DNA of 32,000 nt from Candidatus Saccharimonadota bacterium (lineage in GTDB: Bacteria; Patescibacteriota; Gracilibacteria; UBA1369; 2-02-FULL-48-14). The notes beneath the pieces were generated by a model. It made no database searches and had not been told where the DNA came from. It saw nothing but the letters and a program-made list of their open reading frames with translations. A program made the translations under genes and the position numbers. The DNA is taken from the NCBI GenBank assembly GCA_016699145.1, contig CP064962.1:1170001-1202000 (forward strand), read 5' to 3'. Below, one piece after another: positions 26,701 through 30,139 of this stretch; the stretch's first letter is position 1, and every line of letters begins with the position of its first letter.

Positions 26701-29700
26701 CACAGATGAAGAGGGCAATGCCCGCGTGGTGTATAGACACCAGGGGAACGAGAGTAATAGTGATCTGGGTGAATACAACGATGCAGTTTCTAAAATTGGA
26801 CTCGTTTACCGCACCGAAGAATATGATGAAACCGGGGCGTTATATAAAGTCACAGTACAGCAGTGGTACGAAACGAACCTGTCCACAGGCAGGGATTTTG
26901 CCAAACAAACAAGACAAACGTTTCTCACCTATGACGGCTCCAGCCACAAAGATTCAGCCACTGAGTATTCCTATGACGACGCCACAGGGAATCTCACGAC
27001 TGAAACGCATTGGGGCGAAGTGAGTGCCAGCGAAGACGGTTCCTTTCAAGACCTCAGCACACTGGATGAAAAGTTCATCATCACCTACACCTACGCCGTG
27101 GATTCAACTCAAGTGGTGAAAAACAAAGTGGCCCAAAAGAAGATCACGAGCAGCAGTGAAACGGAAAAAACGCGTTACTATTACGACGGCCTTTCTTACG
27201 GAGCCGTGAGCCTGGGAAATATAACGCGCGAAGCCCGAAGTTTCAATAACAGTTGGCAAAATATTCACTATACCTATTCTGCCGAAGGGCTGGTGGAGAC
27301 GGTAAAAAATCCACGCAACTACACCACGACTTATAGCTATGATTCAGAAAACCTTTATCCTGAAACGGTGACGAATCCCAAGGGCTATACGGTGGAATTT
27401 GCCTATGACTATTCCAGTGGAAAAATTGTGAGCAAAACGGATGAAAACGGCATCACGAGCCAGTATACCTATGACGGTTTTTCCAGACCCTTAACTGTTT
27501 CTGTGCCAGATCCCATAAGTGGCACCCTGACCTTGCTTTCCAGCACCACTTACAATGACAATTTCCCAAGCTCGTCCACCACAGTATCCACGGTCAATGG
27601 AGTAAACACTTTGCAAAGCCTATATTTTGATGGATTCAAACGGGAAGTGCAGCGTCTGAGCTCTGCGGAAGGGGGAACGTATACAGCTGTAGACACTTGG
27701 TACGACAGAGGCAATGTGATCCAGCAAACTTATCCTTATGAAACGCAAGGTGCAGGAAGAGATGTGACAAAGCCCAGCATTGTCAACACATACGCCGCGC
27801 AAAATAGACCTTTGACAGTTACAACCCCTCACAGCAGCACCACCTATAGCTACAGCCTGTGGGAAGTTTTGACAGAAAACCCCAACTTTTCCTACAAAAC
27901 CTTCGAATACAATTATGCAGGCCAATTGATTTCCGTGGAGGAACAAAACGGCGGACTCACCTATGCCACGACCTACACCTACGATCCTCTCGGACGGCTT
28001 ATAAACCTCACAGATGCGGAGGGCAATGAAAGGAATTTCATTTATGATTCATTGGGAAGAAAAGTGAGTGAGGAAGATCTGCACCGTCCTTCTGCTACGA
28101 CGATTCCAACCTGGACTTACACTTACGATGCCAATGGAAATCTAGCCACTCGCACAGACCCCTTGGGGGAAGCGACCAGTTGGACTTATGACAATTTGGA
28201 CCGTGTGCGTTATGAGGACTCCAGCCTAACTGGAAGGGAAACCACTTATACTTACGACACCGCCACACGTGGACTTATGAAAGTGTATAAAATCATTTCG
28301 GATGGGGGCGGGAAATATGTCCAGTATCCGATTTATGATTATTTGGGCAATCCAAGCAAAGAGCAGATTTATATTCAAAAACCGGGACTTTCGACTTATT
28401 ACAGCTATGTTTACCAAACGACCTATGACCTGTTAAAACGTCCAACGCGAATCATCTATCCCTCAGCGGCTCTAACCATAAATTATAGTTATAATGAAGC
28501 AGGGCTTTTAGAAACAGTCACGCGCGGGACCGCAACGGCTGTAGTGAATATGGATTACAACGCATTGGGCCAGATTGAAACGCAAACATATGGGAATGGG
28601 AAAATATTAACAAATACTTATGACGAAACAGGGCGTTTAATGCGAAAGCAAACGAACAATTTAGAAGATTTGAATTACACTTACGATGCAGTGGGGAACA
28701 TTTTGCAGATTGTGGACAGTGTAACTCCCAAAACCATCACTTACAGTTACGATGCTTTGGATCGTCTGGTGCGAGCGACCTCGAGCGGCCGCGCAGAGGG
28801 GGATTATGACGAGATGTATGAATACGACAGTTTGGGCAACTTGAGCTACCGCACGTCTTTAGGAGAACTGCTTTATGAAGGGGCGCATCCTCATGCAGTG
28901 AGCAGCGCAGCAGGCCTGACTTATACTTACGATGCCAATGGCAATCTTCTCACGGACGGCGTGCACAGTTATGCTTGGGAAAACAACCGGCTCATAACTG
29001 CGGACGGAAAGGCGTTCGGCTATGATTTTAGTGGAAGTAGATATAAGACAGTGGAGCTTGGGGATTATAGCTACTATATAAATGCTTACCAGGAGCAGCG
29101 TGGAGGAACCGAGACAAGCGCAGGGAATACGACTTACTATATTTTTGCAGGGGGACAGCGCCTTGCGATTCGGGAGGGGACGAACATCATTTACAATCAC
29201 CAGGATCACTTGGGAGGAACGGCGTTCACAACGGATAGGACTGGAGCGGTGAGCCAGGTTTATGAATACCTTCCCTATGGTGAAGAGTTGGAAAGCAGCG
29301 GCACAACAGATGCGGCACATTCCTTCACGGACAAGGAGCTGGACGATGACTTGGGACTCTATTACTTCGAAGCGAGGTGGTACAATCCTCTAACAGGCAG
29401 ATTCATAAGTGCAGACCCAGCGCAACATACGATGCTGGGACAAATCATGGGAGATCCACAATCGTTGAATGCTTATACTTATGCCCGTAATAATCCATTG
29501 ATCTACATAGATCCTACAGGGCTAAAAAGTGCAGTAGTATTTTATGGAAAAGAATATAGAGAGGGCTCTGACCCTAACGCTTGGAAAGACAAAGCAGATA
29601 GCAGGGCTGAGGATTTAAGGAATTTGAAAAATGAAGATGGGAGTTTGGTTTACGAAGATGGGGTATATTCTGCAGATGGGACAACTTTTGAGAATTGGGC

Positions 29701-30139
29701 CTCAGCTTTAAATACTTATAGCGACATTGGATTGATTGAATATTATGGGCATGGGGATAAGGATGGCATTTATCTACGAGATACATTAACGGAGTCGAAC
29801 GAGGTTCGATATGAAACAATATTTAGCAATTATTTTAATGGGCAACTTGATTCATACACAGATGGCACATCTGATCATTATGTGAAAGATTTAACACTAG
29901 GCAATACTTCAAAAGACCTTATAATAAAACTATGGTCGTGTAGCACGGCGGAGAGTGGGTATGAGTCAGTCGCACAGTCCTTTTCAAATCATTTCTTAGC
30001 ACCAGTTTATGCATCAAATTCAGCTGATAGCACTTATTTTTTGGGCAACTATGCTTTCACTTCGCCACTTTCATCGGGAGGGTTTGACTGGCGCTATCCG
30101 TCATGGATGTCGATACTTGAAAGTACTATTAATAATTGA
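23732..30139 (+). CDS. RHS-repeat polymorphic toxin with SpvB N-domain and 7-blade propeller (TcB/TcC-like single chain)
   Basis: 2,135-aa ORF with these parts in order:
- Signal-like segment CSLFLLFVVVCNIVFIPLASA.
- Acidic linker.
- SpvB motif YSYNIVTPPGRNGIEPNLALNYNS...GLGWSLNIPSIQR.
- Seven D(V/I)NGDGLPDF blades.
- Many YD repeats (YTYDANGNL, YSYDALDRL, YEYDSLGNL).
- RHS core end YFEARWYNPLTGRFISADP...NAYTYARNNPLIYIDPTGL.

The start may instead be Met8 or Met16. Confidence 0.92.
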   Translation: MRVRLRKMGSIKSPFMTSPSKLCSLFLLFVVVCNIVFIPLASAEEGGETLDPIILEEPEFETAQETPEEDTKFNPKPEDESVMEILGEEEGEKTKEDEPEGPDLEETAPEEEALTEATTESTSEETEIDLDAPRFHPEIDEFTGALTYSYNIVTPPGRNGIEPNLALNYNSGDEDKTSILGLGWSLNIPSIQRINREGTQDLYDGDTFTSSLSGELIALDATTYGAKSEKGDFLNYERVGDAWVVTDKSGTTYTFGSSEDARQDDPADNSRIYKWMLEEIRDLNDNFISYTYTNSGGQIYPDEIRYTGHGSSEGIFSINFSHDTAITGGNNDFSRAFEVTAPSLIDAITISVSGTEVRSYALSYSLGHNQTRSLLESIQETAISEAGVETTLPATTFEYQEDATGWELEEDWEMPTYSNGTDLRGYNGEMSGSIDTQLLDVNGDGLQDFVVLQYGSITGDPALDTFHRVFLNTGEGWELEEDWQMPMYTDGTNTYGYNGEYSSIYTQFLDVNGDGLPDFVVLQGNGNTITGDPALDTFHRVFLNTGRGWELDENWEMPAYSNGTNTYGYNGEYSSIDTQFLDVNGDSLADFVVLYTYTSPITGDPATDTFHRVFLNTGEGWELEENWQMPTHIRGTDTYAYNGEGSTSIDTQFLDVNGDGLPDFVILYSFDTAITGDPAIDLFHRVFLNTGEGWELKEDWQMPVYSNGTDFRGYNGEYNSSIDTQFLDVNGDGLPDFVVLYSFVSPITGDPAVDNFHRVFLNTGEGWELDENWEMPAYSNGTDLRGYNGEMSGSIDTQFLDVNGDTLQDFVVLQYGSITGDPAVDNFHRVFLNTGEGWELEEDWQMPVYTDGTNTYGYNGEPYAYLHTQFSDINSDGLLDFIALQSYSSPITGDPAQDNFHRVFLSQGKASDRLSEITLSSGGTVSVTYEEEPIVDRNPYGETQTFYAVSQITRDDGYGENSLNYEYADGKFYFHEDQYRSFTGFGTVTVTDEEGNARVVYRHQGNESNSDLGEYNDAVSKIGLVYRTEEYDETGALYKVTVQQWYETNLSTGRDFAKQTRQTFLTYDGSSHKDSATEYSYDDATGNLTTETHWGEVSASEDGSFQDLSTLDEKFIITYTYAVDSTQVVKNKVAQKKITSSSETEKTRYYYDGLSYGAVSLGNITREARSFNNSWQNIHYTYSAEGLVETVKNPRNYTTTYSYDSENLYPETVTNPKGYTVEFAYDYSSGKIVSKTDENGITSQYTYDGFSRPLTVSVPDPISGTLTLLSSTTYNDNFPSSSTTVSTVNGVNTLQSLYFDGFKREVQRLSSAEGGTYTAVDTWYDRGNVIQQTYPYETQGAGRDVTKPSIVNTYAAQNRPLTVTTPHSSTTYSYSLWEVLTENPNFSYKTFEYNYAGQLISVEEQNGGLTYATTYTYDPLGRLINLTDAEGNERNFIYDSLGRKVSEEDLHRPSATTIPTWTYTYDANGNLATRTDPLGEATSWTYDNLDRVRYEDSSLTGRETTYTYDTATRGLMKVYKIISDGGGKYVQYPIYDYLGNPSKEQIYIQKPGLSTYYSYVYQTTYDLLKRPTRIIYPSAALTINYSYNEAGLLETVTRGTATAVVNMDYNALGQIETQTYGNGKILTNTYDETGRLMRKQTNNLEDLNYTYDAVGNILQIVDSVTPKTITYSYDALDRLVRATSSGRAEGDYDEMYEYDSLGNLSYRTSLGELLYEGAHPHAVSSAAGLTYTYDANGNLLTDGVHSYAWENNRLITADGKAFGYDFSGSRYKTVELGDYSYYINAYQEQRGGTETSAGNTTYYIFAGGQRLAIREGTNIIYNHQDHLGGTAFTTDRTGAVSQVYEYLPYGEELESSGTTDAAHSFTDKELDDDLGLYYFEARWYNPLTGRFISADPAQHTMLGQIMGDPQSLNAYTYARNNPLIYIDPTGLKSAVVFYGKEYREGSDPNAWKDKADSRAEDLRNLKNEDGSLVYEDGVYSADGTTFENWASALNTYSDIGLIEYYGHGDKDGIYLRDTLTESNEVRYETIFSNYFNGQLDSYTDGTSDHYVKDLTLGNTSKDLIIKLWSCSTAESGYESVAQSFSNHFLAPVYASNSADSTYFLGNYAFTSPLSSGGFDWRYPSWMSILESTINN
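24944..26445 (+). repeat. seven tandem 216-231-nt coding repeats (propeller blades) with long identical DNA tracts
   Basis: Unit: GWELEEDWQMP.Y.NGT...GYNGE.....DTQFLDVNGDGLPDFVVL.......ITGDPA.D.FHRVFLNTGE. 24978-25042 is identical to 26061-26125 (65 nt). 25968-26040 is identical to 26181-26253 (73 nt). Confidence 0.9.
29525..30136 (+). other. C-terminal variable payload domain of the RHS protein (~204 aa, unassigned; clan-CD-protease-like His/Cys pattern)
   Basis: Begins right after DPTGL (29510-29524). Contains AVVFYG, then LIEYYGHGDKDG (His codon 29750-29752), then LIIKLWSCSTAESG (Cys codon 29939-29941). G+C falls here (21/60 at 29701-29760). Confidence 0.6.

Follow-up and report, generated by a model that had tools for sequence, protein, structure and literature searches.

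A predicted caspase-fold payload in an RHS polymorphic toxin of a candidate phyla radiation bacterium

In a 32,000-nt stretch of a Candidatus Saccharimonadota bacterium genome (assembly GCA_016699145.1, contig CP064962.1, positions 1,170,001 to 1,202,000; hereafter the window, in whose coordinates positions are given unless a locus outside it, numbered L001 and so on, is named), a single open reading frame (ORF) at 23732..30139 (+) encodes an RHS polymorphic toxin of 2135 aa. Its last 204 residues (29525..30136, +) make up a C-terminal payload that, from an AlphaFold2 (AF2) model, Foldseek searches and a family of about 19 relatives, is predicted to be a cysteine peptidase toxin with a caspase-like (clan-CD-like) fold. 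Directly behind it lies the gene of a small membrane protein, our candidate for the cognate immunity protein. The analysis establishes the architecture of the RHS protein, the boundary of its payload, a payload family in which one His and one Cys are invariant, the class of fold that the model adopts, and linked toxin and immunity genes; the interpretation given below builds on these.

The RHS gene and the genes behind it

The RHS protein has a TcB/TcC-fusion-like architecture of the 'TcdB/TcaC type': signal peptide, SpvB domain, FG-GAP blades, RHS/YD repeats, Rhs-associated core and the 204-aa tail follow one another in this order, so that SpvB and the FG-GAP propeller stand N-terminal to the RHS repeats and a DPxGL core stands directly before the variable C-terminal domain. 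Read from the translation, the N-terminus is probably a Sec signal peptide (aa 1-43; 23732..23860, +; MRVRLRK...LFLLFVVVCNIVFIPLASA, followed by EE), with a basic beginning, a hydrophobic core and an A-S-A motif, ending ...IPLASA before the same EE. The best-matching stretch of the SpvB (TcB-like) N-terminal domain covers aa 142-222 (24155..24397, +; Pfam PF03534, E 3.8e-18). FG-GAP-like beta-propeller blades occupy 24943..26314 (+), where Tandem Repeats Finder reports 6.4 tandem copies of a 219-bp (73-aa) unit with 75% matches at that period, and where the Pfam models FG-GAP (E 1e-13) and FG-GAP_3 match. The blade unit reads GWELEExWQMP...YNGE...DTQFLDVNGDGLPDFVVL...ITGDPAxDxFHRVFLNTGE, and its copies are highly alike at the DNA level, which suggests recent expansion or gene conversion. 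The RHS repeats are matched by Pfam RHS_repeat (E 3.9e-28), and NCBIfam adds matches to RHS_core, YD_repeat_2x and Rhs_assc_core.

The RHS repeat-associated core, the self-cleaving aspartyl-protease plug of such proteins, spans aa 1846-1931 (29267..29524, +) and ends in IDPTGL. TIGR03696 (Rhs_assc_core) matches it over the full model (positions 1-76 of 76, E 9.4e-20), the core aspartates lie within DKELDDDLGLYYFEARWYNP, and the core terminates ...NNPLIYIDPTGL. Translation of 29405..30145 gives ...YARNNPLIYIDPTGL up to the boundary and KSAVVFYGKEY...SWMSILESTINN from there to the stop. The last core residue is L1931 (nt 29522-29524) and the stop codon occupies 30137..30139, which confirms an earlier note on this DNA, made from the sequence alone, in placing the end of the RHS core here with a tail of about 204 aa behind it. 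A genetic code in which UGA is read as Gly occurs in lineages related to Peregrinibacteria. We rejected such a code for this locus: the 2135-aa ORF and its neighbours read cleanly under table 11, and the TGA stop of the RHS gene is real because homologous toxins end in the same place.

Only 2 nt past the RHS stop begins the gene of the immunity candidate (30142..30498, +), a protein of 118 aa in which hydropathy predicts three transmembrane (TM) helices. Homologues that are 38-47% identical stand directly downstream of the same toxin domain in L002 (40%) and L023, and a fourth copy of the immunity family lies on a 732-bp contig (L024). Toxin domain and downstream gene vary together, with different genes behind the toxin in other branches of its family. 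Invariant residues of the immunity family are concentrated in two segments, the loop that follows helix 1 (EPxLxYTPLxCxFxN) and the C-terminal tail (YEDIFRxVxKGxYxSCEQxPIxFL), and not in the TM helices; each segment has one invariant Cys (C33 and C104). Basic stretches occupy the N-terminus (MFKK) and the loop between helices 2 and 3 (RYSKWRFK), so that by the positive-inside rule both conserved segments would be placed outside the cytoplasm.

The GC content falls across the module (core 46-49%, tail 38.9%, immunity gene 29%), with the step at the DPxGL boundary. Between the window and L023 the aligned proteins are 60% identical overall and the tail is, by eye, better conserved than the adjoining core. 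Both the GC step and the conservation of the tail are typical of exchangeable C-terminal toxin/immunity modules. A scan for promoters and terminators in 29400-32000 returned nothing better than shuffled sequence.

Three further ORFs follow on the same strand. The first (30495..30659, +; 54 aa) is a stand-alone LysM-like, that is peptidoglycan-binding, module (Pfam LysM, 22.0 bits vs a cutoff of 20.9, E 1.6e-4); it is nearly complete, lacks a signal peptide and starts on an ATG that overlaps, as ATGA, the immunity gene's stop codon. Its membership of the toxin/immunity system is uncertain; a module of this kind coupled to an immunity gene is an unusual find that would suit a cell-wall setting without proving one. 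The other two, both low in GC (29-36%), encode membrane proteins without a family match and are possible orphan immunity genes: a 169-aa ORF of 29% GC with a hydrophobic N-terminal half (30721..31230, +; no significant family match) and a 174-aa ORF with an N-terminal membrane anchor (31250..31774, +). The C-terminal part of the latter is 41% identical (E 3e-16) to L024 2..265, with a shared motif ...C..RTCYEKG..P..W, and in L024 it is behind this homologue that the fourth immunity copy stands, an arrangement that suggests shuffled immunity arrays. Together with L024 2..265, the two window ORFs look like such a shuffled array of orphan immunity genes. In L002, which holds the closest homologue, an RHS-core fragment (...WDKRNRLSSSAGKTFSYDASGSRYK...) resumes directly after the immunity gene at about 1760..1898 (frame 3), collinear with window aa 1755-1772, which indicates a downstream orphan rhs cassette.

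Conserved residues and fold of the tail

At sequence level the tail (KSAVVFYGKEY...IEYYGHGDKDGIYL...LIIKLWSCSTAESG...STINN, then the stop) has no nameable toxin family, as had been noted before: searched alone, it had no significant match in Pfam, NCBIfam, PADLOC or PDB sequences. A match to DUF4125 (E 0.041) was dismissed as noise. With the tail alone, neither a scan of 185,579 species genomes nor a tblastn search of plasmids found a relative, and a word-indexed search of 5.8 billion proteins returned one homologue, its profile version five. The family became visible only with an exhaustive phmmer search of 1.84 billion cluster representatives, which gave 22 matches, about 19 of them genuine relatives. 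Three matches (P0011, P0012 and P0016) were excluded as spurious, each being repetitive or of low complexity with several scattered short matches. A metagenome scan added one locus, L019, where the domain is encoded by an orphan cassette starting MDPTGL (5983..6633) within an RHS toxin/immunity array.

In every genuine relative that shows the junction, the domain sits directly after a DPxGL-type boundary of the RHS core. In one branch (P0023, encoded in L001, and P0022) nothing but a signal peptide and a short RHS-core tip precedes the toxin domain; since these proteins carry their own signal peptide and no RHS shell, the domain is, as judged from their architecture, exported there without an RHS cocoon. 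L001 itself, a high-GC metagenome contig, holds two such 'cocoon-less' polymorphic toxin genes in tandem (1343..2239 and 2897..3628). Their short products are built alike: a signal peptide is followed by about 50 aa of RHS-core tip (YHMKARYYDAEAKRF...DPLGL), and this by a C-terminal domain that varies, belonging to the caspase-fold family in one of the pair and being unrelated in the other.

We aligned 20 family members, which are 24-71% identical to the query, and counted invariance over the 204 query positions. Only seven are invariant (in tail numbering L62, I68, G75, H76, L123, C139 and F157). Two of these are the proposed catalytic residues: His2007 (tail H76; codon CAT, 29750..29752, +) in a G-H-G motif (context IEYYGHGDKDG), and Cys2070 (tail C139; codon TGT, 29939..29941, +) as the proposed nucleophile (context IIKLWSCSTA), each present in 20/20 members and separated by 63 residues. 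C139 is the sole Cys in 19 of the 20, and the remaining two His of the query, H118 and H156, vary across the family. The tail is acidic (pI 4.37; 15 K+R vs 31 D+E).

In a single sequence, one His and one Cys after hydrophobic stretches could have arisen by chance in a non-enzymatic domain, an explanation that is scarcely credible here: both residues are invariant down to 24% identity where only seven columns are, so that the layout is a conserved family feature, the Cys is almost always the only one, and the fold class agrees with a catalytic role.

The AF2 model of the tail, computed with the family alignment as input, has a pLDDT of 95.5 and a pTM of 0.90. Its elements run beta(2-7), alpha(19-32), beta(46-51), alpha(55-64), beta(68-74), G-H-G and a beta-hairpin (81-100), and continue after the hairpin with beta(128-137), S-C, alpha(149-157), more strands and a C-terminal helix. 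G75-H76-G77 follows directly on strand 68-74 and S138-C139 directly on strand 128-137. In the model both residues thus stand at the C-terminal ends of consecutive core strands, in the order that marks clan CD: the catalytic H-G after one core strand and the Cys after the next. A His-Gly after one strand and a Cys after another, 63 residues apart, had been read from the sequence before, and the positions given there (H2007 and C2070) are those found in the model.

Foldseek comparison with the PDB placed 9qpe_G, from an Hcp3-Tce1 complex, at the top (E 1.6e-3), followed by the SAVED-CHAT filament 8tl0 (probability 1.00, TMq up to 0.46). Further high matches were caspase-11, -3, -1, -4 and -7, Csx29/TPR-CHAT, MALT1, a C11 peptidase and gingipain R, and the probabilities were 0.85-1.00 for nearly all of the top 19. 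Folds outside clan CD appeared only scattered and lower within the top 50, with no rival fold near the top. Among the predicted viral structures of BFVD, giant-virus caspase-domain proteins rank first. Profile and structure searches gave no high-ranking match to an unrelated known fold, the best PDB and viral-structure matches being almost all caspase-fold. As the TM-scores of these matches are modest (0.42-0.46), the caspase-like (clan CD) fold supported by the model is that of a divergent member. The W-S-C-S-T sequence around the Cys had also been considered as the nucleophile elbow of an alpha/beta-hydrolase, a reading that we rejected, since the model matches caspase-like folds and hydrolase folds are missing from the high ranks.

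A more specific relationship emerged from profile searches of the family. Seven of the 20 members match Pfam DUF4347 (PF14252) below threshold (E up to 1), the best at E 9.4e-4. The matches share a common register, with the family His at profile position ~55 in the four members inspected, and that of P0004 covers both His and Cys. The top structural match, 9qpe_G, was deposited under the name 'DUF4347 domain-containing protein'. An approximate DUF4347-like probe searched against the PDB returned 9qpe_G at E 1.4; we used it for the depositor's name and for rough profile positions, and not as evidence of homology. We conclude that the tail is a distant, superfamily-level relative of DUF4347/Tce1 that lies outside PF14252 as defined.

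Activity, site of action and alternatives

With its His and Cys invariant and at strand ends of a modelled caspase-like fold, the tail is very probably an enzymatic payload that depends on the two residues, and the earlier note's proposal of a clan-CD-type protease payload is supported to that extent. The following course of events would account for the locus. The RHS shell would enclose the 204-aa domain, and the aspartyl protease of the Rhs core would, by analogy with TcC/Rhs proteins, cut after ...IDPTGL (L1931) and free it. The freed domain would act as a caspase-fold cysteine peptidase with His2007 as general base and Cys2070 as nucleophile, and may cleave a protein or peptide exposed in the envelope, either on the outside of the cytoplasmic membrane or within the wall. 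The 118-aa three-TM protein would protect the producer, its conserved extracytoplasmic loop and tail binding or blocking the toxin. We regard it as probable that the tail is a peptidase toxin and that the downstream membrane protein neutralises it. The whole explanation apart from the envelope site, with a Sec-secreted RHS protein, release of a caspase-fold peptidase toxin and downstream membrane immunity, we hold to be somewhat likelier than its contrary.

The site of action is addressed by the genes that stand behind the toxin in other branches of the family. These are L019 6646..7293; L001 2220..2801 with its homologue L021 886..1467; L026 2908..3633, identical to L027 4045..4770; and L028 3618..4088. 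The four kinds of protein are unrelated to one another and to the window immunity protein, and a Pfam search of all five kinds gave no match, Imm36 included. Each of the five begins with a TM anchor or a signal-like hydrophobic segment in a hydropathy scan. Other toxins of these loci have immunity genes of cytosolic types next to them (DUF2283 in L019, SUKH after a ribonuclease toxin in L026). The anchoring of the immunity candidates, which bears on the site of action, was absent from the earlier note. Beside the toxin/immunity pair of L026 we also observed an RHS-tip protein (3686..5886) with a Laminin_G_3 domain and a weak Ribonuclease match, which is followed by the SUKH-like immunity gene.

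The membrane-anchored immunity candidates, the contrast with cytosolic immunity proteins in the same loci, the conserved segments predicted to face outward and the cocoon-free branch together lead us to favour action at the envelope. That the toxin acts extracytoplasmically, on the outer face of the membrane or the cell wall, is a suggestion from sequence features to which we give slightly less than even weight. In its fullest form this idea would make the family the first interbacterial toxins of the caspase fold (clan CD) to kill from a position outside the cytoplasm. Carried by the Sec-secreted RHS cocoon of a candidate phyla radiation (CPR) bacterium, the toxin would cleave an exposed envelope component, for example a peptide of the peptidoglycan, a protein of the S-layer or of a pilus, or the extracytoplasmic loop of an essential membrane protein, and it would be neutralised by membrane-embedded immunity proteins with a small, disulfide-linked external surface. 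Taken as a whole, this is tentative and rather unlikely.

Several points weigh against these readings. The membrane-anchor argument is correlative and rests on five lineages and a simple hydropathy scan, and two other toxins, one in L028 and one in L001, also have membrane-anchored neighbours. The structure model of the immunity protein is of low confidence (pLDDT 58.9) and was used only for the presence of three long helices. Clan CD enzymes are not known to act on peptidoglycan. With regard to homology, all DUF4347 matches fall below the Pfam cutoff (the best score, that of P0004, is 18.3 bits, E 0.0021, vs a gathering threshold of 24.6), and the query tail itself has no DUF4347 match. A profile match to the CHAT structure 8tl0 was not significant (E 1.4), and its alignment, as read, misses the expected CHAT catalytic Cys; it was not used as evidence.

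The strongest competing explanation is that the same caspase-fold peptidase acts in the cytoplasm of the target cell after translocation, and that the membrane-anchored immunity proteins intercept it at the membrane during entry or export, without marking where it acts. Most characterised Rhs C-terminal toxins act in the cytoplasm, as do most toxins of contact-dependent inhibition systems, and the fold and dyad evidence is equally compatible with such a site. The related Tce2 is moreover toxic inside yeast cells (PMC13323088). We nevertheless consider this improbable, if by no means negligible, as all five unrelated immunity candidates are N-terminally anchored with their bulk predicted outside, the neighbouring nuclease-type toxins of the same loci have cytosolic immunity proteins, and the conserved parts of the window immunity protein are its predicted external loop and tail.

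The domain might also carry out a different chemistry. In this case the caspase-like scaffold and the Cys/His pair would serve a reaction other than endopeptidase cleavage, for example that of a transamidase or ligase, of an isopeptidase or amidase on peptidoglycan stem peptides or cross-bridges, of a deamidase, or of an acyl-hydrolase on lipid-linked precursors. Transamidases and ligases, GPI8 and legumain among them, are found in clan CD, the strand-nucleophile-helix motif is typical of further hydrolase folds too, the immunity proteins are envelope-located, and the LysM-like ORF is translationally coupled to the immunity gene. On the other hand, the top structural matches are nearly all endopeptidases, neither Pfam nor Foldseek gave an alpha/beta-hydrolase, NlpC/P60 or LD-transpeptidase match, and the conserved H-G after a strand is a clan CD signature. 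We therefore rate another chemistry as unlikely, and less likely than cytoplasmic action of the peptidase.

A far less probable explanation is that the tail is no toxin at all. It would then be a peptidase with a processing or releasing role, or else a harmless factor of the cell surface or for colonisation, and the downstream membrane protein would have nothing to do with immunity. Most caspase-like domains in polymorphic toxins are indeed releasing peptidases (Zhang et al., PMC3482391). Here, however, the domain is the C-terminal-most part of the protein, with nothing beyond it to release, and it recurs as the orphan cassette starting from DPTGL inside the RHS toxin/immunity array of L019. 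A small, tightly linked gene always stands downstream and co-varies with the branch of the toxin, and the GC drop at the boundary is that of exchanged C-terminal toxin/immunity modules.

The peptidase-toxin reading, with the envelope as its possible site, matters for several reasons. To our knowledge, targets have been established for only a few of the numerous protease-type polymorphic toxins that are predicted, and the envelope-directed antibacterial toxins known to us so far are amidases, glycoside hydrolases, lipases and pore formers. If membrane-anchored immunity marks an envelope target, the present domain would represent a new enzymatic class among them; the consistent anchoring of the immunity partners is the one feature that could raise the importance of the system. 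It would also show how ultra-small CPR bacteria fight their neighbours or hosts, in a genome of ~1.34 Mb that spends 6.4 kb on this RHS gene. Furthermore, the family ties the uncharacterised DUF4347/Tce1 group to polymorphic toxins with immunity genes and may help to assign the substrates of Tce1 and Tce2. Experimental entry is easy, given a domain of about 200 aa, a model of very high confidence, a two-residue knockout and a clear immunity partner.

Elsewhere in the window, the gene of an RsmI protein lies upstream of the RHS gene (22979..23662); its product is identical to QQR54807.1, which carries the annotation Candidatus Peregrinibacteria, a CPR lineage. A 1507-aa protein of FG-GAP repeats (8326..12849, +) and a 726-aa protein with C-terminal S-layer homology (SLH) domains (12698..14878, +), whose genes sit in a GC-rich stretch (55% vs ~46% elsewhere), are probably both large proteins of the cell surface or anchored to the S-layer. 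In a 756-aa protein (2971..5241, +) an MFS/TLC (ATP/ADP translocase-like) membrane domain is joined to C-terminal HEAT repeats; import of nucleotides would be in keeping with a CPR bacterium that depends on a host. A Fic/DOC-domain protein with a C-terminal helix-turn-helix motif (15100..16053, -) may be a toxin-antitoxin-like or regulatory AMPylase. Finally, a tRNA-Gly(UCC) gene (16961..17035, -) lies exactly under the first 75 nt of an RNase H ORF (16960..17574, +), whose RNase H domain begins only at aa 63; the true start of this gene is therefore probably downstream of the tRNA.

Comparison with known toxins and peptidases

The closest described category is 'Tox-Caspase' (Zhang, de Souza, Anantharaman, Iyer & Aravind 2012, Biol Direct 7:18; PMC3482391), a caspase-like fold with H and C that serves mostly as a releasing peptidase and at times as a C-terminal toxin. 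For it the same work named a TcdB/TcaC-type delivery route, with signal peptide, SpvB, integrin-like propeller and RHS, and the immunity family Imm36. As in this class, the window protein is a polymorphic toxin that ends in a caspase-like domain with H and C, and it has the same delivery architecture. The tail falls within the class, which was predicted by comparative genomics, and is not a new kind of system. It differs from this in-silico class in that neither Imm36 nor another known immunity family is matched and the immunity candidates are membrane-anchored, and in that the sequence family has no Pfam or NCBIfam model. On this last ground the earlier note's suggestion of a new family stands; it falls short in that the tail is a distant relative of DUF4347/Tce1 and belongs to the Tox-Caspase class (PMC3482391).

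PA0256/Tce1 was described as a DUF4347 protein in 2021 (PMC8262886), and a 2026 study superposed the dyads of Tce1 (H186/C240) and Tce2 (H65/C115) on that of the TcdB cysteine protease domain (CPD) and found Tce2 to be toxic in yeast, an effect abolished by C115S (PMC13323088). The resemblance of the tail to these cargo proteins of the H3 type VI secretion system (T6SS) of Pseudomonas aeruginosa lies in the order His then Cys, in a central sheet flanked by helices and in the rank of Tce1 as top structural match; like the tail, they are putative cysteine protease effectors, with Cys-dependent toxicity in the case of Tce2 (PMC13323088). Tce1 and Tce2 are, however, Hcp-loaded T6SS cargo of a Gram-negative bacterium, lack an immunity gene next to them and are regarded as anti-eukaryotic (PMC13323088, PMC8262886), whereas the present domain is, from its gene context, RHS-encapsulated, apparently Sec-exported and paired with an immunity gene. 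The spacing between His and Cys also differs, with 63 residues in the tail vs 54 in Tce1 and 50 in Tce2.

With the established clan CD peptidases (CHAT, the C14 caspases, MALT1, C11, gingipain C25 and the C80 CPD) the likeness is at the level of the fold, with His and Cys after successive core strands. Neither the tail nor the family members match the Pfam models of C14, CHAT (PF12770), C80, C11 or C25, and the tail has an extra beta-hairpin (residues 81-100) after the His. Compared with the C80 CPDs of TcdA/TcdB and MARTX toxins, the acidic tail does not suggest the basic InsP6 pocket by which those domains are activated.

The TcB-TcC cocoons and the T6SS Rhs effectors (such as RhsA, Tse15 and TseI) share the RHS/YD shell, the DPxGL core, the variable C-terminal toxin and the downstream immunity gene. 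In contrast to them, the window shows no TcA partner, PAAR or VgrG, export is apparently by Sec and takes place in a CPR bacterium, and the payload is predicted to be peptidase-like instead of a nuclease, ADP-ribosyltransferase or NADase. Literature searches, whose coverage was incomplete, found no experimentally characterised RHS-borne caspase-fold toxin. What is new here is the pairing with membrane proteins: the downstream three-TM protein recurs with the toxin, and the unrelated downstream proteins of the other branches are all N-terminally membrane-anchored.

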